Source of the DNA: Flavobacteriales bacterium
GTDB lineage: Bacteria > Bacteroidota > Bacteroidia > Flavobacteriales_F > PHOS-HE28
NCBI GenBank assembly: GCA_047601855.1
Contig: JASGIM010000001.1
Location: 2,820-66,819 of the forward strand
Reading direction: 5' to 3'
Length of the DNA stretch: 64,000 bases
Positions 1,948-60,620 of the stretch are shown here, piece by piece. The number at the start of each line of letters is the position of its first letter. Positions within the stretch are counted from its first letter, which is position 1. The notes beneath the pieces are model-generated. The model worked only from the letters and a program-made list of their open reading frames with translations. It made no database searches and was not told where the DNA came from. Position numbers and translations under genes: made by a program.

Positions 1948-4900
1948 TTAGTTCTTGTTGTTCTCGTTGTCCGATTCCAGGCTCACGTTCAGCGTGAGGC
2001 CGCGAAGTTCGTGCAGCAACACGTTGAAGGATTCCGGGATGCCTGGCGTCGGCAGGGGCTCACCCTTCACGATCGCCTCGTAGGCCTTGGCACGGCCCAT
2101 CACGTCATCGCTCTTCACGGTGAGGATCTCCTGCAGGATGTTCGACGCGCCGAAGGCTTCGAGCGCCCACACTTCCATCTCACCGAAGCGCTGGCCACCG
2201 AACTGGGCCTTACCGCCGAGCGGCTGCTGGGTGATGAGGCTGTAGGGTCCGATGGAACGGGCGTGCATCTTGTCGTCCACCATGTGGGCGAGCTTCAGCA
2301 TGTAGATCACACCGACCGTTGCGGGCTGGTGGAACCGTTCGCCGGTGCCGCCGTCGTACAGGTAGGTCTTGCCGAAGCGCGGCACACCGGCCTCGTCCGT
2401 TTCCTTGTTGATCTCGTCGATCGTGGCCCCGTCGAAGATCGGCGTGGCGTACTTGCGGCCCAGCTTCATGCCGGCCCAGCCCAGTACGGTCTCGTAGATC
2501 TGGCCCAGGTTCATCCGTGAGGGCACGCCCAGCGGGTTCAGCACGATGTCCACCGGCGTACCGTCCTCGAGGTACGGCATGTCCGCGTCGCGCACGATCT
2601 TGGACACGATGCCCTTGTTCCCGTGGCGGCCGGCCATCTTGTCGCCCACCGTCAGCTTGCGCTTGGCGGCCAGGTACACCTTGGCCAGCTTCACGATGCC
2701 TGCGGGCAGCTCGTCGCCGATGCTCACCTGGAATTTCTTCCGCTTGTAGGCACCGCTGATGTCGCTGAAGCGGATCGTGTAGTTGTGGATGAGCTGGCGG
2801 ACCAGTTCGTTGGTCTTCTTGTCGCTGGTCCAGTCCGTCGGGTCCACGGTGATGTAATCCACCGCCTGGAGCACCTTGGCGGTGAACTTCACGCCCTTCT
2901 TGATCTGCTCTTCCTTGTATTTGTTGAAGACGCCTTCGCTGCTTTGGCCGCCCACGAGCGTCATCAGCTTCTCGATCAAGAGCATCTTCAGGTCGCCGAG
3001 CTCCTTGTCCTGCTCCTTGTCGATCTGCTCGAGCACGGCCTTCTCGTTGCCCTTCGTCTTCTTGTCCTTGATGGCCCGGCTGAAGAGCTTCTTGTCGATG
3101 ACCACGCCCTTGGTGCTGGGCGGAGCCTTCATCGAAGCGTCCTTCACGTCACCGGCCTTGTCGCCGAAGATGGCGCGGAGCAGCTTCTCTTCCGGGCTCG
3201 GATCGGTCTCCCCTTTCGGCGTGATCTTGCCGATGAGGATGTCGCCTTCCTTGATCTCGGCGCCGATGCGGATCAGGCCGTTCTCGTCGAGGTCCTTCGT
3301 GGCTTCTTCGCTCACGTTCGGGATGTCGGCGGTGAGCTCCTCCAAGCCACGCTTGGTGTCGCGCACTTCCATGATGTACTCGTCGATGTGGATCGACGTG
3401 AACATGTCCTCACGAGCAACGCGCTCGCCGATCACGATGGCATCCTCGAAGTTGAAGCCCTTCCACGGCATGAAGGCCACCAGCAGGTTGCGGCCGATGG
3501 CGAGCTCGCCATCCTCCGTGCTGTAGCCTTCCACCAGCACCTGGCCCTTGCTCACCTTCTCGCCCTTGCGGACGATGGGGCGCAGGTTCATGCAGGTGCT
3601 CTGGTTGGTCTTCATGAACTTGGTGAGCTTGTACTCCTTCTCGTCGCCCTCGAAGCTCACGGTGCGCTCGTCGGCCGAACGCTTGTAGTCGATCACGATC
3701 TTGTCGGCGTCCACGCTCTTCACGGTGCCATCGCCCTCGGCCACCAGCAGCACACGGCTGTCGCGGGCCACGAGCTCTTCCAGGCCGGTACCCACCACGG
3801 GCGCATCGGGGCGCAGCAGCGGCACGGCCTGACGCATCATGTTCGAGCCCATCAGGGCGCGGTTGGCGTCGTTGTGCTCGAGGAAGGGAATCAGGCTCGC
3901 GGCGATGGAGGCGATCTGGTTCGGCGCCACGTCCATCAGCTGCAGTTCCTTCGGTTCCACCACGGGGAAGTCGCCCATTTGGCGGGCTTTCACGCGCTTG
4001 GTCTCGAAGGTGCCATCGTCCTTCAGTTGGGCGATCGCCTGCGCGATCACCTTGTTGTCCTCTTCCTCGGCGCTCAGGTACACCACGTCACCCTTCACGT
4101 CCACCTTGCCGTCCTCCACCATGCGGTAGGGCGTTTCGATGAAGCCGAGGTTATTGATCTTGGAGTACACGCAGAGGCTGCTGATCAGACCGATGTTCGG
4201 GCCTTCCGGCGTCTCGATCGTGCAGAGGCGGCCGTAGTGCGTGTAGTGTACGTCGCGCACCTCGAAACCGGCGCGCTCGCGGCTCAGGCCACCGGGTCCA
4301 AGTGCCGAGAGGCGGCGCTTGTGGGTGATCTCGGCCAGCGGGTTGGTCTGGTCCATGAACTGGCTCAGCTGGTTCGTTCCGAAGAACGAGTTGATCACCG
4401 AGCTCAGGGTCTTGGCGTTGATCAGGTCGGTCGGGGTGAACACCTCGTTGTCGCGCACGTTCATGCGCTCGCGGATGGTGCGGGCCATGCGGGCCAAGCC
4501 CACGCCGAATTGGCTGTAGAGCTGCTCCCCTACCGTGCGCACACGGCGGTTGCTCAAGTGGTCGATGTCGTCCACATCGGCCTTGGAGTTCACCAGCTCG
4601 ATCAGGTACTTGATGATGCAGATGATGTCCTCCTTCGTCAACACGCGCACGCTCAGCTCGCTTTCGAGGCCGAGCTTCTTGTTGATCCGGTAGCGGCCCA
4701 CCTCGCCCAGGTCGTAGCGCTGTTCACTGAAGAACAGCTTGTCGATCACGCCGCGGGCGGTCTCCAGATCGGGTGGTTCGGCGTTGCGCAGCTGGCGGTA
4801 GATCACCTCCACGGCCTCCTTCTCGGAGTTCGAGGTGTCCTTCTGCAGTGTGTTGTAGATCAGCGCGTAGTCGGCGGCGTTGATGCCGGCCTTATGCAGG

Positions 4901-12686: not shown

Positions 12687-14541
12687 TCATCGCACCAGGG
12701 TCACATATCCAGGCACACGATCCGCAGAAGGGTTATCAGGGGTCACCACGTAGTAGTACGTCCCGTCCGGCACGCCCGAGCCGCTCCAGCCTTGGGCCAA
12801 TGCGCGCGTGCTGAAGATCGAGCTGCCCCCAGCGGTTGTAGATCTCCAACAGGCCCGGACTGCCGTCGTAGTTCAGCGGGATGAAGTGCTCGTTCTTCCC
12901 ATCCCCGTTCGGGCTGAACACGTTGGGCATCTCGATCACGCCCGGGCGCACCATCCGCACCACCGAGCGTACCGTATCCACGCAGCCGCCCGCACTGGTC
13001 ACCACCAGCATCACCGGATAGCTCCCCGGAACGGCCGGGAACGTCGCCGTGACGGACGGGTCCGATGCGTTCGGTGGGGCCGCCGCCCCCAGGTCCCACC
13101 ACCAGCTCACGATGTTCCCGGACCCCGTGCCACTGAGCTGCACTTCCGGATGCTCCACGTTCCCCGGATCGGGGTCGATGCCGATCCCACCGCTCACCGG
13201 AGGATAGACCTGCACGTGCAACACCGTGTCACCCGAGCAACCTGCGCTGTTCCGCACCTGTAGCCGCACCTCGTAGTTCCCCGGCGTATCGTACCGGTAG
13301 CTGAACGCGCTGTCCGCTCGGGTTGCGCCACTACCCAGGTCCCACTGCCGGGCGGCCATCCCATGGGTGGTATCTGCCAAGGCGACCGTCAATGGCGCGC
13401 ACCCGATGAAAGGTTCCGCCACCGGCGTAGGCAGCGGCGGTACCGCTGGTGGTACATACGAGGCGCCCATCAGGCACTCCCCATTGAAGGTGCTCGCCAG
13501 GGTATACTGCCCCGCTCCATAGCCGCCTCCGGAAACGTTCAACGTGGTGCCGGTCTGGCCCGGCAGCGCCACACCGTCCCTGTACCATTGGTAATTGCTG
13601 GCACCGGAGGGCGGTGTACCTATGGCCGCGGCGGTTCCGGCGCACAGTGTGCCGGAACTACTCACGGGTTGCAGTATCTGGTCCCCTGCGACGGTGAGCA
13701 TCAGGTCATCCACCAGGAAAAACGGCGCTCCGCTATAGGTCTCGCCCGTGGAAGGGTTGGTGATCAAGGCGTGGGCGAAGGAGGCCGGCACGTCGCAAGC
13801 CCCACCGATCATGATGGTATGGATGTCCTGCGTGGGCGTGAAGGTGATGGAGACACGGGTCCACGCCCATGCAGGCTGCACGGACACACGGCCCAGTTCG
13901 ATCCAACCGGACTGGTAGCCGATGCAGTCCATCGTGGGCACCGGGAAAGGCACGCAGACGTCCGCGTGGCCGAAGAGGGCCAGGGGGAATTGGTCCGTGA
14001 ATGGCGCCACGTACGATTCCTGGGCCCGGGACTGCCCATGGTTGTTGACCGTAACACCCGCGGAGATCCACAAGGAAATGGTGTACGTAGTGCCCGCCAG
14101 CAGGCGCCTATCCGGCGCCGGATAGGTGAGGCAGGTGCCCACATACTCGAAGTAACCCGGCCCGGCAAAGAACCCCACGGCACCATCTCCATCCGGCGGT
14201 GGGAGGTTGAATCCGATGGGCGCATAACCGCACATGTTGAAGTAATCGGATGTGGCGGCCGTGGCCTGGTGCCAGCCTGCTGCACAATCCAGCCAGGGCC
14301 ATGAGACCGGGGTAACGAACCCGAAAGGACAGCACGTTCCGTTCAACCGGTCCTCGAAGGAGTGGTTGCGGATATAGCTCTGCAGGTCGGGAGCCATCAG
14401 CACCGTGGAGCAGGGACAGTCCGGATCGTTCAGGTCAATCAGGCCGTCGCCGTCGTCATCTATACCATTGTTGCAGATCTCCTGAGCGAGAACAGTGCTT
14501 CCCCACAGGAGCAGGAGCAGAACATGCGTCGATCGTATCAT
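12687..14541 (-). CDS. T9SS cargo protein: signal peptide, Cys-rich DDDGDG motif, PKD domain, type-B C-terminal sorting domain (gliding-motility-associated/CHU_C). Apparent 1-nt insertion near 12820.
   Basis: Starts MIRSTHVLLLLLWGSTVLAQEICNNGIDDDGDGLIDLNDPDCPC. Contains a PKD-like segment. The C-terminus ...MPNVFSPNGDGKNEHF...EIYNRWGQL is in frame A, then SIFSTRALAQGWSGSGVPDGTYYYVVTP...GYVTLVR* is in frame B. The junction is at GAAGATCGAGCTG (12813-12825). Confidence 0.75.
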
Positions 14542-16405
14542 CGTACAAGTGTAATGTGGCCGGCTTGCTTCTTCTCGCTGGCATCGTTCGGTGTGACCAC
14601 ATAGTAATATGTCCCCTCCGGCACCTCTTTCCCCGCGGCGCGGCCATCCCAGCCAGCGGCCAATGCCGTAGTGCTGAAGATCGAGCTGTCCCCAGCGGTT
14701 GTAGATCTCCAGCAGCCCGGCCACGCCGTTGTGGTCCAACGGAGTGAATCGATCGTTCTCCCCATCGCCGTTCGGGCTGAATACGTTGGGCATCTCGATC
14801 TCGCCGTGGCGGGTGATGGTCACCACGGAGCGCACCGTGTCCACACAGCCGTTCGCGCCGGTCACCACCAGCACCACTGGGTAGCTGCCGAGTTCAGCAG
14901 GGAAGGTGGCGATGAGCGATGTGCCCGTCGCCGTTGATGGACTCCGCCGCACCGAGGTCCCACCACCACGACACGATGTCGCCTGCCGAACCCCTGCCGG
15001 AAAGGGCCACTTGGAGATCTTCGGCATCGGCGGGGTCGGGTGTGGCCGTGATGCGCCCTGTCACCCCCGGAAGCACGGTCACCGCGTTCGCGACCAGGGT
15101 ATCCCGCTCGCAACCGGCCCCACTGCGCACGGTAAGATGCACATCATAGGTGCCGGGCACGGTGTAGGTGTGGGTGAGCGCATGGTCCGTACTTGTTGTG
15201 CCGTCGCCGAGGTCCCAGCTCACCGTGGAGCCGTCCCCGGTGTTGCTCGCGAACGCCACCGTGAGCGGCGCACACCCGGTGGAAGGCATCACCACCGGCA
15301 TCGGCACCGCCGGTGGTGGCACATAAGCCGCACCCATCAGGCACTGCCCGTTGTAGGTGCTGGCCATGGTGTAGAGCCCTCCCCCCAGGCCGCCAGCGGA
15401 AACATCCAAGGTGGTACCGGTCTGCTCCGGCAGCGCCACGCCATCGTGGTACCACTGGTAACCAGTGGCCCCGGCAGGCGGCTGCGCCACGGCCCGTGCA
15501 TTCCCCTCGCAAATGGCCCCCGAAGCAATGACGGGGCTGAGCACCTGGTCCCCGGCTTCGGTCAACATCAGGTCGTCAATCAGGAAATAGGGATACATCT
15601 CCTTCCAGCCCCAAGCGGTCAGGATCGGCGTGGGCGCGAAGGACGACGGCGCATCGCAGGCGCTGCCGATAATCACGCTGTGGATGTCCTGCGTGGGCCT
15701 GAAGGTGATGGAGACCCGCACCCAGTCCCATGCGGGCTGCACCATCACCCGCCCCAATTCGTTCCAGCCCGGCTGGTATCCGATGCAGTCGGAGGTCCCG
15801 ATCGGGAAGGCCTGGCAGGCATCAGCATAGCCGAAGATGGCCAGTGGCAGCGGGTCGGGGAAAAGGTGCAAGGAACGGCCCTCCTCGTACGTCTGGGCGA
15901 TGTGGTTATCGCTGGCCGCGCCTGCGATCCACAGCGAAAGCGTATAGGTGGTGCCCGCTTGCAGGATGTTGGCCGGTGGAGGATAGGTGAGGCAAGTACC
16001 GACATATTCCTGCCAAGGGAACCCCGGAACGACCTGAAAGGCCGCCGCCCCTTGTCCGTCCGGCGGTGGCATGGGCGTGCCTGCGGGCGCGAACCCACAG
16101 GTGTGCAGGTAATCTGAAGTGGCGGCCGTGGCCTGCTGCCATCCCATTGCACAACTTAAATAAGGAATAGCGGCACCCAAGACCGGCCCGAACGGGCAGC
16201 ACATCCGCTCCTCGAAGGAATGGTTGCGGATGAAACTCTGCTGACCGGGGGCCATCAGCACCGTGGAACACGGACAATCTGGATCGTTCAGGTCGATCAA
16301 CCCGTCACCGTCATCATCAATGCCATTGTTGCAGATCTCTTGCGCGGGAACCGCTGAACACCATGCGGACAGGACAAGGGTGGATGCCCAATGCAACTTC
16401 TTCAT
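14538..16405 (-). CDS. Paralogous T9SS cargo protein (signal peptide, Cys-rich DDDGDG motif, PKD domain, type-B C-terminal sorting domain). Two apparent 1-nt insertions near 14925 and 14683.
   Basis: Starts MKKLHWASTLVLSAWCSAVPAQEICNNGIDDDGDGLIDLNDPDCPC. PKD segment SWDLGDGTTSTDHALTHTYTVPGTYDVHLTV. The C-terminus is split across three frames: ...WDLGAAESINGDG | TSLIATFPAELGSYP...EIYNRWGQL | IFSTTALAAGWDGRAAGKEVPEGTYYYVVTP...HITLVR*. The stop overlaps the downstream start of the paralog (ATGA). Confidence 0.75.
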
Positions 16406-31289: not shown

Positions 31290-31355
31290 GACAGCGCGTC
31301 GTCGGGGCGCTAACGCGCGAGGAAAGCCAAGAAGGATCGGCAAGAAGGCCTAAGC

Positions 31356-31700
31356 CTATCCTTGGGAGGGGGCCGCAGGAGGAGCGTCCACCGAAGGAGC
31401 GGATGGCATCTCAGGCGTGGCCGGGGCTGTTGGCGGAGCGGCCGGTTGCTGCGGAACGGCGTTCTCGGGCGGCTCGATGCGGAAGGCACGGCGCTGTTCC
31501 TCGTACCCCTGCTTCACTTCATCGGCCCCGCGCTGGATCTCCCGCTGCACCTCGGCCGTGGCATCACGCAACTGGCGCATGGTGCGCCCCATGGTGCGCG
31601 CGATGCCGGGAAGGCCCTTGCTGCCGAAGAACAGCAGCACGAAAAGCAGGATCACGATGAGCTCGCCACCGCTCACGTCGAACAACAGAGCCACGGACAT
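31356..31700 (-). CDS. tatA: Twin-arginine translocase subunit TatA/E
   Basis: MSVALLFDVSGGELIVILLFVLLFFGSKGLPGIARTMGRTMRQLRDATAEVQREIQ..., followed by a Pro/Ala-rich tail. Confidence 0.85.
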   Translation of the reverse strand: MSVALLFDVSGGELIVILLFVLLFFGSKGLPGIARTMGRTMRQLRDATAEVQREIQRGADEVKQGYEEQRRAFRIEPPENAVPQQPAAPPTAPATPEMPSAPSVDAPPAAPSQG

Positions 31701-31749
31701 CGGGACAAAGGTACCCTTCCACAAGCTCAGGATGACACATACAACCGCA

Positions 31750-31778
31750 TGTCACCCTGAGCCTGCCGAAGGGTGACA
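31750..31778. repeat. REP/MITE-like palindromic element, short form (TGTCACCCTGAGCCTGCCGAAGGGTGACA)
   Basis: Stem GTCACCC/GGGTGAC with a 13-nt loop. This is copy 1 of three in the secDF-tatA intergenic region. Confidence 0.8.
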
Positions 31779-31790
31779 CGTGCGATCACC

Positions 31791-31885
31791 TGTCACCCTG
31801 AGCCTGCGCGCCGACGCCGAAGCGCTTTGGCGCCTTGCTCCGCCGAAGGCTATGCGAAGGCGCTGCAGGCGCCCGAAGAGCGACA
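31791..31885. repeat. REP/MITE-like element, long form with a ~32-bp internal insertion and a degenerate right end
   Basis: TGTCACCCTGAGCCTGCGCGCCGACGCCGAAGCGCTTTGGCGCC...AGGCGCCCGAAGAGCGACA. Colinear with the 62-bp copies at 38934 and 60561. Confidence 0.75.
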
Positions 31886-31895
31886 CCTACTCACC

Positions 31896-31924
31896 TGTCA
31901 CCCTGAGCCCGCCGAAGGGTGACC
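31896..31924. repeat. REP/MITE-like palindromic element, short form (TGTCACCCTGAGCCCGCCGAAGGGTGACC)
   Basis: Third copy in the same intergenic region. Confidence 0.8.
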
Positions 31925-31985
31925 TCCCCGAACGAAGCGCGGCGCCCAAGGGCGCCGCGCTCACAGAGTTCGATCGTACCGCAGA

Positions 31986-34900
31986 TCAGGCGGTCACCGG
32001 CACGGCGGGGGACTTTTCGGGAACACCGTCCTTGTGCAGGTCCACCACCACCGCGGAGGCGATGAAGATGGAGGAGTACGTACCCACGGCGATACCCACG
32101 AGCATCGCGAACACGAAGCCTTTGATGGAGTCGGCGCCGAAGAGGAAGATCACCAGCAGCACGATCAGCACGGTGACCGACGTGTTGATGGTACGGCCCA
32201 GCGTGGAGTTGATGGCCTTGTTGAAGACCACGGCCCACGGGTCCCGCTTGTGGTCCTGGAGGTACTCCCGGATACGGTCGTACACCACCACCGTATCGTT
32301 GATGGAGTAGCCGATCACCGTAAGGATGGCGGCAATGAAGTGCTCATCGATCTCCAGCGAGAAGGGCATGATCTTGTACAGCAGCGAGTAGAGCGCCACC
32401 ACCACCAAGGCATCATGCGCCAGCGAGAGCAGGGCGCCCAGGCCGAACTGCCAGGTGCGGAACCGCACCGCGATGTAGAGGAAGATGAACAGCAGCGCAG
32501 CTATTACGGCGTACCAGGCATGGGCGCGGATGTCGTCGCTGATCGTGGGGTCCACCTTGCGCGAGGCCGCCACGCGGAACGGGTCGTTCATCGTGCGCAG
32601 GCCTTCCTGGAGCTTGTCCTCCACCAGCTTGTCCGTGGCCAGGTCGGTGCTGTTCACCATGTAGTTGGTGGTCACCTTCACCTGGTTGCTGCCGCCGTAG
32701 CTCACCACGCGCACGCCGCTTTCCACGCCTTCCAAGGTGAAGGCCGGCTCCAGGGCCGTGCGCACGTGCTCCACCTCCACCGGCTGGTCGAACTTCACCA
32801 CGTACTCACGGCCGCCGGAGAAGTCCACCCCGTAGTTGAAGCCCTGGGTGAACATGCTCACGAAGCCGGCGATGATGAGGACGCCGGAGAAGAGGTAGAA
32901 GTACTTCCGCTTGGCCATGAACTGGTAGTTCGCGTGGGCGAAGATGTCCTTGTTCCAGCTGTGCCAGAAGGTCATGGACTTGCCGTTCTCCAAGCGCTTG
33001 GAGATGATGAGGCGGCTGATGAAGATGGCGGTGAAGAGCGAGGTGAGGATACCCAGCGCCAGCGTGACCCCGAAGCTCTTGATGGGGCCTGTGCCGAAGA
33101 AGATCAGGATCACGGCCACTACGAAGTGCGTCACGTTCGCATCGATAATGGCGGACATGGCGTGCTTGTAGCCCAGGTCCACGGCGCTCTTGATGGCCTT
33201 GCCGTGGCGCAGTTCCTCCCGGATCCGTTCGTTAATCAGCACGTTGGCATCCACGGCCATACCCACCGTGAGCACGATACCCGCGATGCCGGGCAGGGTG
33301 AGCGAGGCCTGGAGCGAGGCCAGGGTGCCCATCAGCACGAACACGTTGGCGAGCAGGGCCACGTTGGCCACCCAGCCCGAGCCGTTGTAATAGATGACCA
33401 TGAAGAGCATCACCATCAGCATGGCCACCGCGAAGGAGATGAGGCCGCGCTGCACATTCTCGCCACCGAGTGAAGGGCCCACCACCGTTTCATCGATGAT
33501 GCGCGCAGGCGCCGGCAGCGCACCGGCCTTGAGCACGTTGGCCAGGTCGGTCGCTTCTTCCAGTTGGTTGTTGCGGTCGCCGCTGCCCATGCTGATGCTG
33601 CTGCGGCCGCCGGGGATCTCGCCCATGACGTTGGGCGAGGACACCACGCAGCCGTCCAGCACGATGGCGATCTGCTTGCCCACGTTCTCGCCGGTCATCA
33701 GCTTCCAGGTCTGGCCGCCTTCGGCGTTCATCTGCATGGTCACCTCGGCATCGCCCTTCATGTCGAAGTCCTGGCGGGCATCCACGATCACGCTGCCGTC
33801 CAGTTTCGGCTTGCCGCCACGGGGCACGCGCAGGGCGTGGAGGGTGAGGAAATCACGGCCGTTGCCGTCGGCGGCGAACATCTTCGTGGGCTTGCTGCTC
33901 CAGGCCAGTTTCAGGCCCTGGCTCGCGTTCGGGCTGCTGGGGGGGGCCAGGCGGAGCAGGCGGGCCACCTCGGCGGTGTCGCTCACGGCGCAATACCCCA
34001 CCACGTCACCGCGGCCCAAACGGCCGTCACCGGTCATGTTGGGCACCAACCGGCCCAGCAGCGGGTTCTTGGCCAGGCGTTCGGCCTCGGTCATCTCAGG
34101 CTTGGTGGAATCCGCAGCGGTGGTGTCCGCCAAGGCGGCATCGGCCAGGCTGTCGGCCTTGGACTTGCCCGCGGTCTCGGCGGAAGGGTCGGTGGCCAAC
34201 ACCCTCAGGGCCATGCGACGGTTCTTCGCACGTCCTTCTGCAGTAGCGTTGCTGGCCACGGGGTGCTGCGAACCATAGCCTTCCGCTTCCAGCCGGCCGG
34301 TCGCCACACCCTTGCCCACCAAGGCGGCCACTACGGCCTCGGCACGCTGCTGGGAGAGGCGTTGATTGGCCTGCTCATTGCCCGTGCTGTCCGTGTAACC
34401 ACCGATCTTCAGGCGGACCGCTGGATAGGCCTTCATCACTTCGGCCAGGTTGGTCAGCTGTTCCATTGAGCGAGCTGCGTCCAGCTTGGCGCTGCCGCTC
34501 TCGAACGTCACCCGGTCGAAGTCGATCCAATTCTCTTTGTCCACCGCCTTGCCACTGGCCAGGAGATCCACCAATCGCTTCTCCACGCCGGTGGTATTAC
34601 CGCTGATCTTGGTGCCCGTAGGCAAGGTGTGGTCATACGTAGCGCCTCCCTTGTCGGCACTGTCGGCCTTCGCCAGCTCGGGGTGGAGCATGGCGCTGAG
34701 CTTGGTGTTGGAAGCGGCGATCGCCGGGAACACGTCCTGGTTGTCGAAGGTCTCCCAGAACTCCAGGTTGGCGGTGCTTTGCAGCACTTTGCGCACCCGC
34801 TCCTTGTCCTTCACGCCGGGCAGCTCGATCTGGATGCGGCCGCTGATGGACTGCTTCTGGATGCTCGGCTGGGCCACGCCGAACTTGTCGATACGGGTGC

Positions 34901-35513
34901 GGAGGATGCGTTCGGTGTTGTTCAGCGCGATACCGGCCTGGTTGCGCAGCGCGGCGATCACCTGGCTGTTCGTGCTCTCCCGCGGGAACATGGCCGCATT
35001 GTCCTGCGAACTGAAGATGGCGGCGAGGCTGCCGTTCGGGGCGGCCTTGCGGAACTCTTCATCGAAAAGGGTGATGAAATCGCTGTTGCTGCTGGATTGG
35101 CGATGGCGGGCGGCGTCCAGCGCAGCGCGGAAGGCGGGGTCTTGGCTGTTGCCGCTGAGGTTGTCCACCAGTTCGGGGATGCTCACCTCCAGGGTCACGG
35201 CCATGCCGCCCTTCAGGTCAAGGCCGAGGTTGATCTCGCGCTCCTTGCACTCCTTGTACGTGTAACCGAAGAGCGGGTACACCTTGTCGTCATCGTGGTC
35301 GCGCAGGTATTTGTTCTCGAACACCAGCTTGATCGAATCGCGATCGATGTGGGCGGGGTTGCCCAGCGTTCCGATCAGCGAGTCGGCCTGGGCCACGGCG
35401 ATGCCGTCAGCCTTCCGTTCCAGGCCGCCGGTGAAGAAGGAAAAGGACAGCTGCCACAAACATGCGATCGCCAGGAGGATGGTGAACACCCATAGCGCGC
35501 CTCGATTCTGCAT
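31986..35513 (-). CDS. secDF: Protein translocase subunit SecDF (fused), ~1175 aa, with an OmpA-like domain embedded in the SecD periplasmic region
   Basis: MQNRGALWVFTILLAIACLWQLSFSFF... Conserved SecD motifs ANLEFWETF and ...IAIVLDGCVVSSPNVMGEIPGGRSSISMG...LANVLKAGALPAPARIIDETVVGPSLG. SecF half ...GVDFSGGREYVVKF.... Between the SecD motifs lies FDRVTFESGSAKLD...GGYTDSTGNEQANQRLSQQRAEAVVAALVGKGV...GYGSQHPVASNATAEGRAKNRRMALRV (nt ~34197-34526). Confidence 0.88.
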   Translation of the reverse strand: MQNRGALWVFTILLAIACLWQLSFSFFTGGLERKADGIAVAQADSLIGTLGNPAHIDRDSIKLVFENKYLRDHDDDKVYPLFGYTYKECKEREINLGLDLKGGMAVTLEVSIPELVDNLSGNSQDPAFRAALDAARHRQSSSNSDFITLFDEEFRKAAPNGSLAAIFSSQDNAAMFPRESTNSQVIAALRNQAGIALNNTERILRTRIDKFGVAQPSIQKQSISGRIQIELPGVKDKERVRKVLQSTANLEFWETFDNQDVFPAIAASNTKLSAMLHPELAKADSADKGGATYDHTLPTGTKISGNTTGVEKRLVDLLASGKAVDKENWIDFDRVTFESGSAKLDAARSMEQLTNLAEVMKAYPAVRLKIGGYTDSTGNEQANQRLSQQRAEAVVAALVGKGVATGRLEAEGYGSQHPVASNATAEGRAKNRRMALRVLATDPSAETAGKSKADSLADAALADTTAADSTKPEMTEAERLAKNPLLGRLVPNMTGDGRLGRGDVVGYCAVSDTAEVARLLRLAPPSSPNASQGLKLAWSSKPTKMFAADGNGRDFLTLHALRVPRGGKPKLDGSVIVDARQDFDMKGDAEVTMQMNAEGGQTWKLMTGENVGKQIAIVLDGCVVSSPNVMGEIPGGRSSISMGSGDRNNQLEEATDLANVLKAGALPAPARIIDETVVGPSLGGENVQRGLISFAVAMLMVMLFMVIYYNGSGWVANVALLANVFVLMGTLASLQASLTLPGIAGIVLTVGMAVDANVLINERIREELRHGKAIKSAVDLGYKHAMSAIIDANVTHFVVAVILIFFGTGPIKSFGVTLALGILTSLFTAIFISRLIISKRLENGKSMTFWHSWNKDIFAHANYQFMAKRKYFYLFSGVLIIAGFVSMFTQGFNYGVDFSGGREYVVKFDQPVEVEHVRTALEPAFTLEGVESGVRVVSYGGSNQVKVTTNYMVNSTDLATDKLVEDKLQEGLRTMNDPFRVAASRKVDPTISDDIRAHAWYAVIAALLFIFLYIAVRFRTWQFGLGALLSLAHDALVVVALYSLLYKIMPFSLEIDEHFIAAILTVIGYSINDTVVVYDRIREYLQDHKRDPWAVVFNKAINSTLGRTINTSVTVLIVLLVIFLFGADSIKGFVFAMLVGIAVGTYSSIFIASAVVVDLHKDGVPEKSPAVPVTA

Positions 35514-35720
35514 GACGGAAGGACGGTTGGTTTTGGAAAGGTCCGCTTCGGCGGTGGGCCTTGGACGGAGAATGGGGCGGCAAATATAGAAGGATGCCCC
35601 AGCCGTGGACGGGGGGCCTGGACAGCCCACCATGGATGGTGGACAACGCGGCCCCGCGACCGCCCTCCCCGGCCGCGCCAGTGCTCTAGCTTCGCAGCGA
35701 TCCGCTCCATCCCACCCCGC

Positions 35721-38000
35721 ATGCGCCATCGCCTGTCCACCCTCTTCTCCGTTCTTCCCCTGCTCCTCAGCGCGCAATTCGACCTGCATCCCGACCAAAG
35801 CATCCCGGTAACGCGCAACGGCCAGCTGCTCGGCATGCCCTGGGCCGGGGGCCTCAACTACCCGCAGGTGTCGGACATCGATCTGGATGCCGACGGCGAC
35901 AAGGACCTGTTCCTGTTCGACCGCTCCGGCAACCAGGTGATCACCCTGATCAACGATGGCGTGGAGGGGCAGATCAGCTACCACCTCTCGCACGACTACG
36001 ACCACATCTACCCCTTCGCCCAATTGCAGGAGTGGGCGCTTCTGCGCGATTACAACTGCGACGGCAAGGAGGACCTGTTCACCTATACCAATGGTGGCGT
36101 TGCGGTGTACAAGAACACGAGCGTGGGCGGCCACCTCTCCTTCGAACAGGTGGATACGCTGGTGCGGACCAATTATGTGCCGACGGTGACGAACCTATAC
36201 ATCACCCAGGTGGACATCCCGGGCATCGAGGACATCGACGGCGACGACGACCTGGACATCCTCACCTTCAGCATCTTCGGCAACTTCGTAGAGTTCCACC
36301 GCAACATGAGCATGGAACGGTACGGCACCTGCGACAGCCTGGCCTATGAAGTACACAACCGCTGCTGGGGCTTCTTCTCGGAAAGCCTCACCAGCAATGC
36401 CCTGCGCCTGAACAATCCCTGCCAATACAACGTGCCAGCCCCCGAATTTCCGGGCAGGATCACGGAATGGGTCCAGCAACTGAAGTCCAGCAATCCGGCC
36501 GTGGCCGCCAACGCTTTGAAGGAGCTGCGGGCCGCGCACGTGGGCAGCACCCTGCTCCCCTTGGACCTGGACGGCGACCGCGACATGGACCTGATCCTCG
36601 GCGACGTGCTCTACAACAACCTCGTCGCATTGACCAACGGCGGCACCATCGCACAAGCCAACATGACCGCGCAGGACACGCTGTTCCCGCAATATGATGA
36701 CCCCGTGAACCTGGACCTTTTCCCGGCGGCCTTCTTCAAGGACATCAATAACGACGGCAAACGCGACCTGATCGTGACGCCGAACTACCCCACGCAATCG
36801 CAGAACTTCCAGAGCGTGTGGTACTACAAGAACGTGGGCACCGATAGCACGCCGGTGTTCAACTTCCAGCAGGAGGACGTGTTCCAGGACCGCATGCTGG
36901 ACTTCGGGGAGGGCGCCTATCCGGTGGCCTTCGACTATGACCGCGACGGGCTGATGGACCTGGTGGTGGCCGACTACGGCTACTACCAGCAGGGGGGCTC
37001 ATACCCGAGCAAGATGGCCCTGCTGCACAACACGGGCACGGCCTCTGAACCCGCCTTCACGCTGGTGACGGACCACTATGCCGACCTGGACACCACGAAC
37101 CTCAAGGCCATCTATCCGGCCTTCGGGGACATGGACGGCGACGGCGACATGGACCTCTACCTCGGAGAGTACGAAGGGCTCCTGCACTTCTACCGCAACG
37201 TGGCCGTTTCCGGCCCGCCGCAATTCTCGCCGCAGAGCAACCTGGTAAAGGACGATAACGGCACCGTGATCGACGTGGGGCAGTTCTCCACGCCGCAGTT
37301 CTTCGACCTGGACAACGATGGCCTCCAGGACCTGCTGATCGGCGAACGCAACGGCAACCTGAGCTACTACCGCAACACCGGCACCACCAGCAGCCCGGTG
37401 TGGCATCTGGAGAACGACAGCGTGGGCGGGGTGAACACCGCGGAGTGGTGGAACGTCACCGGGTTCAGCGTGCCGTGCATGTTCCGCGGTCCGGACGGCC
37501 AGGCCCGCCTGCTGCTGGGCAGCGAGAGCGGCTGGATCCATGCGTACGACAGCATCGACAACAACCTCAACGGCACCTGGCGGATGTTGGACAGCACTTG
37601 GCAGGACATCCACGAAGGGGCCCGCACGGGCCTTGCCGTGCATGACTTCGACGGCAACGGCAGCCTGGACGTGGTGATCGGCAACTACCGCGGCGGCATC
37701 AGTTTCTGGCGGAACGACCATGTAACGGGCATCGAGCAGGCGGCGGCCCGCGTGGAACATGCCTTCCAAGTGATGCCGAACCCGGCGAACACGGCAGCGG
37801 ACATCCTCCTGGCCCTGGACGCACGGACCGGTATGCGCCTGGACGTGCTGAACGAGCTTGGACAGACGGTCCGTTCCCTGCCCGTGCGCGGCAAGCGCCT
37901 GCACATGGACACCGAGGGCCTGCGCAACGGCGTGTACATGCTGCGCCTGAGCGACGGCCCCGCACGCTGGACGGAACGGCTGGTGGTGCTGCACGAGTGA
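35721..38000 (+). CDS. FG-GAP/VCBS-repeat beta-propeller protein with T9SS type-A C-terminal sorting domain
   Basis: Signal peptide MRHRLSTLFSVLPLLLSAQ. Repeated D.D.DGD.DL(I/V) FG-GAP-like motifs. C-terminus ...FQVMPNPANTAADILLALDARTGMRLDVLNELGQTVRSLPV...GVYMLRLSDGPARWTERLVVLHE. Confidence 0.8.
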   Translation: MRHRLSTLFSVLPLLLSAQFDLHPDQSIPVTRNGQLLGMPWAGGLNYPQVSDIDLDADGDKDLFLFDRSGNQVITLINDGVEGQISYHLSHDYDHIYPFAQLQEWALLRDYNCDGKEDLFTYTNGGVAVYKNTSVGGHLSFEQVDTLVRTNYVPTVTNLYITQVDIPGIEDIDGDDDLDILTFSIFGNFVEFHRNMSMERYGTCDSLAYEVHNRCWGFFSESLTSNALRLNNPCQYNVPAPEFPGRITEWVQQLKSSNPAVAANALKELRAAHVGSTLLPLDLDGDRDMDLILGDVLYNNLVALTNGGTIAQANMTAQDTLFPQYDDPVNLDLFPAAFFKDINNDGKRDLIVTPNYPTQSQNFQSVWYYKNVGTDSTPVFNFQQEDVFQDRMLDFGEGAYPVAFDYDRDGLMDLVVADYGYYQQGGSYPSKMALLHNTGTASEPAFTLVTDHYADLDTTNLKAIYPAFGDMDGDGDMDLYLGEYEGLLHFYRNVAVSGPPQFSPQSNLVKDDNGTVIDVGQFSTPQFFDLDNDGLQDLLIGERNGNLSYYRNTGTTSSPVWHLENDSVGGVNTAEWWNVTGFSVPCMFRGPDGQARLLLGSESGWIHAYDSIDNNLNGTWRMLDSTWQDIHEGARTGLAVHDFDGNGSLDVVIGNYRGGISFWRNDHVTGIEQAAARVEHAFQVMPNPANTAADILLALDARTGMRLDVLNELGQTVRSLPVRGKRLHMDTEGLRNGVYMLRLSDGPARWTERLVVLHE

Positions 38001-38851: not shown

Positions 38852-38880
38852 GGCCGAAGCCATCCCATCGGACCGGATGG

Positions 38881-38908
38881 GTCATGCTTCGGCAGGCTCA
38901 GTTATGAC
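38881..38908. repeat. REP/MITE-like element, diverged short form in inverted orientation (GTCATGCTTCGGCAGGCTCAGTTATGAC)
   Basis: Reverse complement GTCATAACTGAGCCTGCCGAAGCATGAC. The stem changes are compensatory (GTCATAA.../...CATGAC versus GTCACCC/GGGTGAC). Confidence 0.6.
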
Positions 38909-38933
38909 ACACATGGCCGTTCGGGGTCCGTGC

Positions 38934-38995
38934 TGTCACCCTGAGCCTGCGCGCCGACGCCGAAGCGCTTTGGCGCAGGCGCCCGAAGGGTGACA
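38934..38995. repeat. REP/MITE-like element, complete 62-bp long form
   Basis: TGTCACCCTGAGCCTGCGCGCCGACGCCGAAGCGCTTTGGCGCAGGCGCCCGAAGGGTGACA; nested palindrome. Lies in the convergent methyltransferase/mdh intergenic region. Confidence 0.85.
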
Positions 38996-39068
38996 CACCG
39001 GACATCCCTCCGCACATCGGAACGAAAAAGGCGCCCGTAGGCGCCTTTCCCTTGGAGGTCCGTTCGGA

Positions 39069-47352: not shown

Positions 47353-49575
<2,223 letters not shown>

Positions 49576-49614
49576 CAGTATGGGACGGCCCGGACAATCG
49601 GGAGATCAGGCCAT

Positions 49615-49683
49615 CACCCTTCGGCTACGCTCGGGGTAACAGAAGCACGGTGGGTCACGCTTCGGCGGGCTCAGCGTGACAGG
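49615..49683. repeat. Tandem copy B of the same repeat
   Basis: CACCCTTCGGCTACGCTCGGGGTAACAGAAGCACGGTGGGTCACGCTTCGGCGGGCTCAGCGTGACAGG. Lies 106 bp after copy A, between the gyrB start and the 3' end of the porin gene. Confidence 0.75.
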
Positions 49684-60507: not shown

Positions 60508-60560
60508 GCGGTCAAAGTAAACGGGAGCGGCGCTAGTAAACTTGCGCCGCCTATCCGTGG

Positions 60561-60620
60561 TCATCCTTCGGGCGCCTGCGCCAAAGCGCTTCGGCGTCGG
60601 CGCGCAGGCTCAGGGTGATA
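60561..60620. repeat. REP/MITE-like element, 62-bp long form in inverted orientation
   Basis: Reverse complement: CCACTATCACCCTGAGCCTGCGCGCCGACGCCGAAGCGCTTTGGCGCAGGCGCCCGAAGGATGA. Nearly identical to the copy at 38934-38995. Lies in the GT4 / murB divergent intergenic region. Confidence 0.85.

Follow-up and report, generated by a model that had tools for sequence, protein, structure and literature searches.

The short palindromes dispersed over a 64-kb stretch of Flavobacteriales DNA (hereafter the window, i.e., the whole 64,000 nucleotides that were analyzed) belong to one widespread hairpin family that crosses phylum boundaries. Across phyla, these hairpins are physically linked to genes encoding GIY-YIG nucleases, and the hairpin type co-varies with the nuclease lineage. 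We think it probable, albeit far from certain, that the copies in the window are orphan (gene-less) members of a widespread REP-type family whose cognate enzyme is this GIY-YIG nuclease. More tentatively, we propose that a large UPF0213 clade and YGTC-tagged hairpins may form a REP/RAYT-like partnership in many phyla and some phages, in which the nuclease would cut the hairpin and drive its spread.

Hairpin copies in the window and at the secDF-tatA site

The window has a G+C content of 63%, and its gene order around a tRNA cluster, with rpoC at the left end, is of a type associated with Bacteroidota. Eleven copies of the hairpin family were found in it, in short, long, and decayed forms (Table 1). 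As the sequence-only reading of this DNA had stated, all of them are intergenic, often in inverted clusters; they occupy four intergenic regions rather than the "five loci" given there. These regions are the stretch from the secDF 3' end to the tatA start, the convergent 3' ends of a methyltransferase gene and mdh, the spacer between an unknown ORF and the gyrB start, and the divergent spacer between a glycosyltransferase gene and murB, which holds the copy at 60559-60620. The unit measures 27-29 nt in the short form and 62 nt in the long form, the latter with a nested hairpin in its loop. In the cluster at 31710-31924, the copies stand in alternating orientation. The 5' tag of the window copies is TGTC, which happens to be paired there, unlike in most foreign copies. 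The decayed copy at 31710-31737, an addition to those listed in the sequence-only reading, is head-to-head with the 31750 copy and ends 9 nt short of the tatA start codon.

Table 1. Hairpin copies in the window. R1 is the covariance model described in the text; z refers to folding as single-stranded DNA relative to shuffles.
Position	Strand	Form	Evidence
31710..31737	(-)	Decayed short form TGTCATCCTGAGCTTGTGGAAGGGTACC	R1 match at 31706-31740(-), 27.3 bits, E 7e-7; fold z +0.5
31750..31778	(+)	Intact short form TGTCACCCT / GAGCCTGCCGA / AGGGTGACA	R1 41.1 bits, E 1e-11; DNA fold -8.7 kcal/mol, z -3.3
31791..31885	(+)	Long form whose nested loop hairpin holds a further 33 nt; 3' arm diverged (GAGCGACA)	Partial R1 match at 31788-31832, 19.3 bits
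31896..31924	(+)	Intact short form, loop GAGCCCGCCGA	R1 40.4 bits; z -3.0
38880..38909	(-)	Decayed short form TGTCATAACTGAGCCTGCCGAAGCATGACC	Loop exact; R1 19.6 bits, one insertion; z -0.3
38934..38995	(+)	Intact 62-nt long form	DNA fold -22.2 kcal/mol, z -4.0; R1 18.8 bits
49511..49537	(-)	Decayed copy, sister loop type (CGAGC-GTAG-CCGAA)	Sequence; z +0.5
49547..49573	(-)	Short form, CGC/GCG stem variant, outer 3' arm imperfect	R1 37.0 bits
49612..49641	(-)	Decayed copy, sister loop type (CGAGC-GTAG-CCGAA), TGTTACCCCGAGCGTAGCCGAAGGGTGATG	R1 6.8 bits, E ~10, weak; z 0.0
49653..49681	(-)	Intact short form, compensatory CGC/GCG stem (GTCACGCT...AGCGTGAC)	R1 39.2 bits; z -3.5
60559..60620	(-)	Inverted long form, outer arms diverged	Nested insert equal to that at 38949-38982; R1 10.1 bits; z -1.6

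The palindromic repeat family that had been recognized by inspection is real. The short form TGTCACCCTGAGCCYGCCGAAGGGTGAC(A) occurs at both 31750-31778 and 31896-31924, and the 62-nt long form was recovered at 38934, in inverted orientation at 60559-60620, and with its additional insert (33 nt) at 31791-31885. Shuffle controls exclude chance: CCGAAGGGTGACA, with up to two mismatches allowed, has 10 matches in the window versus 2.2 expected, and none of 100 shuffled sequences reached 10, while CTGAGCCNGCCGAAG has five exact matches versus 1.3 expected at up to two mismatches. When folded as single-stranded DNA, intact copies gave z-scores of -3.0 to -4.0 relative to shuffles; decayed copies scored about 0, no better than the shuffles themselves. 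In the long form at 38934-38995, the short-form stem and a T-GA-G/C-GA-A internal loop are retained, and a nested GC-rich hairpin replaces the apical loop. The 34-nt loop insert of this copy, GCGCGCCGACGCCGAAGCGCTTTGGCGCAGGCGC, is identical in the long form at 60559-60620, and the recurrence of the nested insert in three window copies shows that the long form was copied as a unit.

The compensatory stem changes that had been reported for diverged copies proved to be of two kinds. The CGC/GCG stems at 49653-49681 and 49547-49573 are genuinely compensatory, but the GTCATAA...CATGAC arms at 38880-38909 form a mismatch and a bulge and reflect decay. Likewise, among the diverged members reported for 49511-49683, only the CGC/GCG copies stand; those at 49511-49537 and 49612-49641 are decayed copies of the sister loop type. 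The sister loop type seen at 49511-49537 also flanks GIY-YIG genes in three of the fetched loci (L165, L168, and L176).

The proposed comparison of orthologous sites in related strains was carried out at the secDF-tatA spacer, and it revealed that the hairpins are present in the window and absent in relatives, as evidence of their gain and loss. The spacer spans 284 nt in the window, where 4-5 hairpin copies follow a terminator-like hairpin equivalent to that of the relatives; it spans 34-80 nt in relatives with 83-85% identical TatA and 154 nt in a relative with 68% identity. The R1 model found no match in the spacer of any of these relatives, each of which has the terminator-like hairpin. 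One relative carries a diverged long-form copy elsewhere, downstream of tatA.

The hairpins were also compared with known classes of elements. They are short imperfect palindromes, multi-copy, and intergenic, frequently arranged in inverted dimers or clusters, as REPs in general are. Of the earlier label "REP/MITE-like", the first half is thereby supported and the second found no support, as neither target-site duplications nor IS-type termini were seen around the copies. In a scan of the whole window against Rfam 15 at the gathering threshold, only tRNAs reached threshold, and an E-value scan of 31650-32000 returned only spurious miRNA-hairpin matches. A search of 31300-32100 for terminator-like sites found none, and the identification as intrinsic terminators was rejected because no T/U tract follows any window copy. 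A hammerhead or K-turn reading of CUGAGC...CGAAG, considered by eye, was also rejected, as the core is unlike that of a hammerhead and there is no 3-nt bulge. Searches of open-access text with the hairpin sequence or with peptide strings returned nothing relevant.

Consensus, covariation, and distribution of the family

The family consensus is (T/C)GTC-A-nnn-T-GAGC-YTGY-CGA-A-n'n'n'. Drawn as a hairpin, it comprises an A-T pair, three free pairs, a T-A pair, tandem G.A/A.G positions, a G-C pair, and a pentaloop (CYTGY). A scan covering one genome per species, with the 27-mer GTCACNCTGAGCCNGCCGAAGNGTGAC and its free N positions as the query, uncovered 12 loci in 12 species genomes. The carriers belong to Chitinophagales and Flavobacteriales (Bacteroidota), Ignavibacteria (Ignavibacteriota), Eremiobacterota, and Spirochaetaceae (Spirochaetota), together with one gammaproteobacterium. 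The two free stem positions are complementary in all 15 instances of the 27-mer, window included, with C-G, A-T, T-A, and G-C pairs all represented, and copies with other stems neighbor the 27-mers in the same loci.

In the metagenome scan, only the 14-base 5' half GTCANNNTGAGCNNGNCGAA was specified, and at least 120 stretches matched. Among the matches listed, the unconstrained 3' triplet was fully complementary in 114 of 151 unique copies versus ~5% expected by chance, and all Watson-Crick pair types occurred at the three variable stem positions. This complementarity in foreign copies indicates that selection acts to keep the stem paired. The sequence-only reading had argued for such selection, and the proof comes from outside the window. 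The base preceding GTCA in the sampled copies was T in 97 of 145 (TGTCA) and C in 22 of 145 (CGTCA). The first stem pair, A-T, was present in 65 of 110 metagenome copies, and TGAC, the 3' complement of the tag, was found in only 14 of 151 among the matches listed; the 3' tails include TCTC, TGAC, TCAG, and others. Long forms from many lineages follow an identical plan up to the G-C pair, beyond which unrelated nested GC hairpins replace the pentaloop.

The covariation analysis that had been suggested for these elements was performed with a covariance model, R1, built only from 110 metagenome copies and none from the window. R1 finds the 37-41-bit short forms of the window at E values of 1e-10 to 1e-11. 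Over the fetched loci, it yielded 221 matches in 591 kb. Collectively, hairpin copies span at least six phyla and also occur in phage contigs, which rules out the two outcomes named at the outset as refuting the family, i.e., that no copies exist elsewhere or that a local assembly duplication produced them. That the palindromes are a product of chance or of an assembly artefact is favored by nothing except the window's high G+C content; given the shuffle controls, the hundreds of unrelated contigs with copies, and the R1 E values, we regard this explanation as practically negligible.

One genuine phage contig, with capsid and protease genes, contains at least 13 copies in 8 kb, as single hairpins or abutting inverted pairs between genes. 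A search of a cultured-phage collection with a 33-nt consensus gave no match. The phage contigs L014-L022 are 100% identical save for one 22-nt coding indel and are uninformative on insertion polymorphism of the hairpins. In dimers outside the window, 30 pairs are inverted versus 8 in the same orientation, and the tags-outward type is the commonest (20 of the 38 pairs). Tandem arrays of half-elements lie beside full copies in three loci (L130, L024, and L178). From these arrays and the variable nested inserts, one might speculate that breakage and repair take place in the hairpin loop.

GIY-YIG nuclease genes between hairpins

All ORFs from the fetched hairpin loci were clustered. The recurrent families near the hairpins were a GIY-YIG protein of ~100 aa and, otherwise, only ABC ATPases, a generic family; no other recurrent candidate enzyme was detected in 847 kb of loci. 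The hairpin-linked proteins match PF01541 at E values of 5e-14 to 1e-19 and carry no accessory domain or recognizable DNA-binding extension. The GIY, YIG, Arg, and Glu motifs are present in them, Y16, Y17, G19, R27, and H31 are invariant, and the nearest relatives in the PDB are 1zg2 and 1ywl. Judged from its sequence, the partner is a minimal Slx1-like GIY-YIG nuclease (UPF0213), encoded by a gene of ~300 bp and with its catalytic motifs intact.

The GIY-YIG ORF lies directly between two hairpins in loci L006, L007, L009, L012, L130, and L042. It is bracketed in this way in 4 of the 12 genome loci, which had been selected by motif; in three of these four, no more than 60 nt separate the gene from the 27-mer, the sole fetching criterion, and in L009 the gene lies at another place in the 8 kb, with other copies of the family on its flanks. 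The 64-kb window itself encodes no GIY-YIG gene. Among the metagenome matches listed, 2 of 120 loci had the gene, a rate that is expected if hairpins far outnumber genes and that a loose association would equally give.

A profile of the hairpin-linked proteins retrieved at least 7,931 clusters at E ≤ 1e-10 from many phyla; these clusters bear no annotation other than "GIY-YIG nuclease family protein" or "putative endonuclease". We fetched seven chromosomal homologs, which were not a random sample but top hits of the profile seeded from hairpin-linked genes, picked by taxon and contig extent: Elizabethkingia meningoseptica, Ca. Brocadia sapporoensis, a Nitrospiraceae MAG, a Kerfeldbacteria (CPR) MAG, Flavobacterium sp. 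270, Mucilaginibacter agri, and a Cyclobacteriaceae MAG. R1 matches occurred at both ends of the ORF in all seven (the 3' match in M. agri being weak), with essentially none elsewhere in these loci. In the usual layout, 1-135 nt separate the end of a (+) copy from the start codon downstream of it, and a (-) copy lies across the stop or after it, with the tags pointing outward; in the Cyclobacteriaceae MAG, both flanking copies are reversed and the tags point inward. The stop codon of the GIY-YIG gene in several loci is the TGA of the tag complement (TGACA). These gene-hairpin units break into gene neighborhoods that are otherwise conserved, namely murG-murC, rplA-gatB, nrdR-methyltransferase, and type I R-M operons.

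More distant homologs on PLSDB replicons, from Alphaproteobacteria, Cyanobacteria, and Cytophagales, are flanked by related hairpins with a lineage-specific tag and loop. The flanking hairpin has a GTTCR tag and TGAGC-GAAG-TCGAA in Sphingomonas and a CCTC tag with a nested loop in Methylobacterium; it reads TGTCATCCCGAGGAACGAGGGAT in Spirosoma and TGTCATTCTGAGTGAAACGAAGAAT in Planktothrix. No hairpins were found at ten GIY-YIG homologs on phage contigs, Bacillus subtilis yazA, a gene on a Legionella plasmid, and one degenerate Sphingomonas copy, and the hairpin link thus holds for a subset of the protein family. In open-access text, we found no report linking GIY-YIG genes to REP-like repeats, and an earlier description may exist elsewhere.

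The main rival to a partnership is that the hairpins are host or independent REP-like elements and that the GIY-YIG gene is a homing-type passenger, with a preference for hairpin dimers as a safe landing site. Some IS elements do target REPs. The gene occupies precisely the position that the spacer has in a tags-outward dimer, the commonest type, it often takes its stop codon from the hairpin tag, and the units have entered conserved operons (murG-murC, rplA-gatB, and type I R-M), all of which speaks for a passenger. On such an account, the nuclease explains its own location and not the spread of the hairpins. However, the tag and loop type change together with the GIY-YIG lineage across phyla, which argues for long co-evolution rather than opportunistic targeting, and the 847 kb of hairpin loci offered no second recurrent candidate enzyme. 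In addition, the account of CGTC-type REPs in Di Nocera et al. 2013 (PMC3733652) presents no transposase linked to them. We therefore consider the passenger unlikely, although it deserves more weight than any other rival.

A weaker rival places the hairpins mainly at the RNA level, as 3'-end stabilizers, processing sites, or non-canonical terminators, with the GIY-YIG protein perhaps acting as an RNA-processing enzyme; in that case, selection on RNA structure would underlie the covariation. The hairpins lie between genes, often directly behind a stop codon, and their tandem G.A pairs fit a classic protein-binding motif of RNA. One phage has a hairpin or a pair between nearly every structural gene, and some GIY-YIG homologs adjoin RNA methyltransferase, rnc, or era genes. 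Yet the copies show no strand preference with respect to co-directional neighboring genes (47 sense, 37 antisense, by heuristic gene calls) even though the G.A motif lies on one strand only. The hairpins have neither a U-tract nor an Rfam family, copies occur in divergent promoter regions as well (60559-60620), and close relatives lack them at the orthologous site. An RNA-level role accordingly appears improbable to us, more so than a passenger. For the suggestion in the sequence-only reading that the elements may mark sites of recombination or transcript stabilization, the missing U-tract and the unbiased orientation offer no support.

Returning to the partnership, we envisage that the GIY-YIG nuclease would recognize the extruded or single-stranded hairpin via its tag and G.A internal loop. 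These invariant parts would serve for recognition, and the three middle pairs would need only to pair. A cut at the hairpin could then seed the copying of hairpins and of the nuclease's own gene, in analogy to the action of RAYT on REP/REPIN elements. We infer both the binding or cutting of the hairpin by the nuclease and the nuclease-driven spread of copies. In their behavior, the GIY-YIG members that are bracketed by hairpins and invade operons resemble a mobile unit, selfish or domesticated.

Relation to known REP classes and nuclease systems

REP/REPIN-RAYT systems (REPtrons) were reportedly described by Nunvar in 2010, Bertels and Rainey in 2011, and Ton-Hoang in 2012. As in those systems, a short tagged hairpin vastly outnumbers a small nuclease gene, the gene itself is flanked by inverted hairpins, dimers can fold into a long hairpin, and the hairpin type co-varies with the enzyme lineage. 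In contrast to them, the enzyme is a ~100-aa GIY-YIG (Slx1-like) protein and not an HUH/Y1 enzyme, and the tag is YGTC and not GTAG. Furthermore, REP/RAYT elements are mostly lineage-specific, whereas near-identical copies of the present hairpins are common to several phyla and phages.

That the hairpins are ordinary REPs or REPINs mobilized by a RAYT is suggested by their shared appearance as short tagged palindromes in inverted dimers and intergenic clusters. We rejected an assignment to GTAG-REP/RAYT, given that the tag is TGTC/CGTC and that no repeat-flanked Y1 (HUH) gene was found. A phmmer search for Y1 transposases in all ORFs of the window and 145 loci detected none in the window and a single PF01797 gene in the loci (L059), which lies 9 kb from any hairpin and is unflanked. 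This explanation is thus very improbable.

The closest resemblance is to a different class. Di Nocera, De Gregorio and Rocco 2013 (BMC Genomics 14:522, PMC3733652) split REPs into GTAG- and CGTC-tagged superfamilies. According to the description of the CGTC class in that paper, the tag is often TGTC or CCTC, the stem has 8-9 bp starting from A-T, the loop has 4-5 nt, and a short tail follows; inverted dimers, often heterodimers, are the prevailing arrangement of the units. The class is described from Bacteroidetes, Chlorobi, Spirochaetes, Thermotogae, and Proteobacteria and, by its authors' account, includes Neisseria dRS3 and Rickettsia RPE-4/-6. The same description explicitly reports the class without an associated or dedicated transposase and without linkage to RAYT.

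The present hairpins fit this CGTC/TGTC-REP architecture, the likeness being one to the published description of the class. They share with it the TGTC/CGTC end tag, the inverted dimers, and the lack of a RAYT, and they agree with an 8-9-bp stem and a 4-5-nt loop only if the two G.A/A.G positions are counted as stem. They differ from it in that these two stem "pairs" are conserved G.A/A.G mismatches, in that tags-outward dimers predominate, in that their tail is not CCA, as it mostly is in the class as described, and in their link to a GIY-YIG gene where no enzyme had been reported for the class. Units of pSymB, a replicon named in PMC3733652, have the form CCTC-ATYCCTGTG-N5-CACAGGRAT-CCA, which shares its plan with the present hairpins and not its sequence.

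On the protein side, the hairpin-linked nucleases resemble the stand-alone Slx1-like proteins (UPF0213 / COG2827; YhbQ, YazA) in consisting of a minimal GIY-YIG domain. Such proteins were treated as vertically inherited putative repair nucleases by Dunin-Horkawicz 2006 (PMC1564403), where the question was raised whether further GIY-YIG members act as molecular parasites. Unlike B. subtilis yazA, which has no hairpins, the partner genes described here are bracketed by hairpins and invade operons. Insertion between conserved genes is a trait they share with free-standing GIY-YIG homing genes (I-TevI, phage seg genes). Nevertheless, the present protein, unlike homing endonucleases, has no NUMOD or other DNA-binding C-terminal domain, and its gene, unlike homing genes, is flanked by structured repeats that exist gene-less by the hundreds; the phage-contig GIY-YIG homologs, for their part, lack these hairpins.

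In bacterial genomes, REP-like repeats rank among the most frequent non-coding features, and to our knowledge an enzyme (RAYT) has been assigned to the GTAG class alone. The GIY-YIG link across at least six phyla makes the missing enzyme of CGTC REPs directly testable with one small protein and a 27-nt oligonucleotide, and it points to a possible role for the unannotated GIY-YIG proteins, whose family is very large (at least 7,900 clusters). If true, the partnership would be the first case of a "REPtron" whose nuclease is not of the HUH type. CGTC-type REPs, perhaps with Neisseria dRS3 and the rickettsial RPEs among them, would thereby gain their missing enzyme, and UPF0213 a function. The hairpins are also frequent insertion-polymorphic sites beside essential genes (gyrB, tatA, and murB), and they cause many spurious ORFs in MAG annotation (e.g., "...HPEPAEG" and "...RLRVT").

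GIY-YIG units at defence loci

The hairpin-bracketed GIY-YIG units, each carrying a ~100-aa Slx1-like nuclease gene, lie recurrently within or adjoining restriction-modification or defence loci. This setting was found in Nitrospiraceae (L162/L163), Cyclobacteriaceae (L168-L170), Ca. Brocadia (L160/L161), and Planktothrix (L178), with gene orders such as hsdM-DUF1016-[GIY]-hsdS, hsdR-[GIY]-methylase, and MmeI-[GIY]-DISARM drmA. A GIY-YIG insertion in an HsdR was recorded earlier (Dunin-Horkawicz 2006, PMC1564403).

Hairpins in a phage and half-element arrays

We found that family hairpins also crowd an 8-kb phage contig (L016, IMG/VR UViG_3300009285_013313; same phage in L014, L017, L020, L021, and L022), which holds at least 13 copies over its whole length. 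Within its structural-gene module, almost every intergenic gap is occupied, either by one family hairpin or by two that abut in inverted orientation and differ in stem. No GIY-YIG gene was found in the fetched part of this phage.

Tandem arrays of 5' half-elements, with a period of 20-23 nt (e.g., TTGTCACGCTGAGCTTGTCG in 5-6 repeats), occur at three loci, in each case directly upstream of a complete hairpin, and suggest repeated breakage or slippage inside the hairpin loop.

Features around secDF and elsewhere in the window

Coordinates of window features and half-element arrays
Feature	Location	Strand	Remarks
Tandem duplication	12736-16405	-	period ~1.86 kb
Spurious ORFs	31564-31922	both	from family repeats
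Hairpin AGCGCGGCGCCC..GGGCGCCGCGCT	31936-31961		immediately 3' of secDF stop codon
secDF	31986-35519	-	fused SecDF, 1177 aa
PF00691	34218-34508	-	OmpA-family domain (Pfam, 76 bits)
Protein with FG-GAP/VCBS-like repeats	35721-38000	+	759 aa
Hairpin AAAGGCGCC....GGCGCCTTT	39027-39048		immediately 3' of mdh stop codon
Half-element array	L130 5040-5200
Half-element array	L024 ~4825-4870
Half-element array	L178 925-1000

It is the two perfect GC-rich hairpins, and not the family repeats, that look like native 3'-end hairpins of secDF and mdh; that of secDF has counterparts at the same position in two relatives (L171 and L172). The family repeats themselves give rise to spurious ORFs with stereotyped peptides (e.g., ...CHPEPAEG, ...FGRLRVT, and ...KLRMT), and MAG annotations can be expected to contain comparable junk ORFs at any site of the family.

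Within SecDF, the OmpA-family domain is inserted in the periplasmic P1 region, with SecD_1st on one side and the P1 head on the other; Pfam gave no PF00691 match in the 1035-aa SecDF of a related MAG (L173).

Other repeats in the window include the tandem duplication, which comprises two neighbouring paralogous genes whose DNA segments are 71-81% identical (repeat families D1-D3, D5, D9, and D15), and the seven FG-GAP/VCBS-like, Asp-rich repeats (DNA repeat family D4) of the 759-aa protein, whose C-terminus, judged by eye, looks like a T9SS sorting domain.
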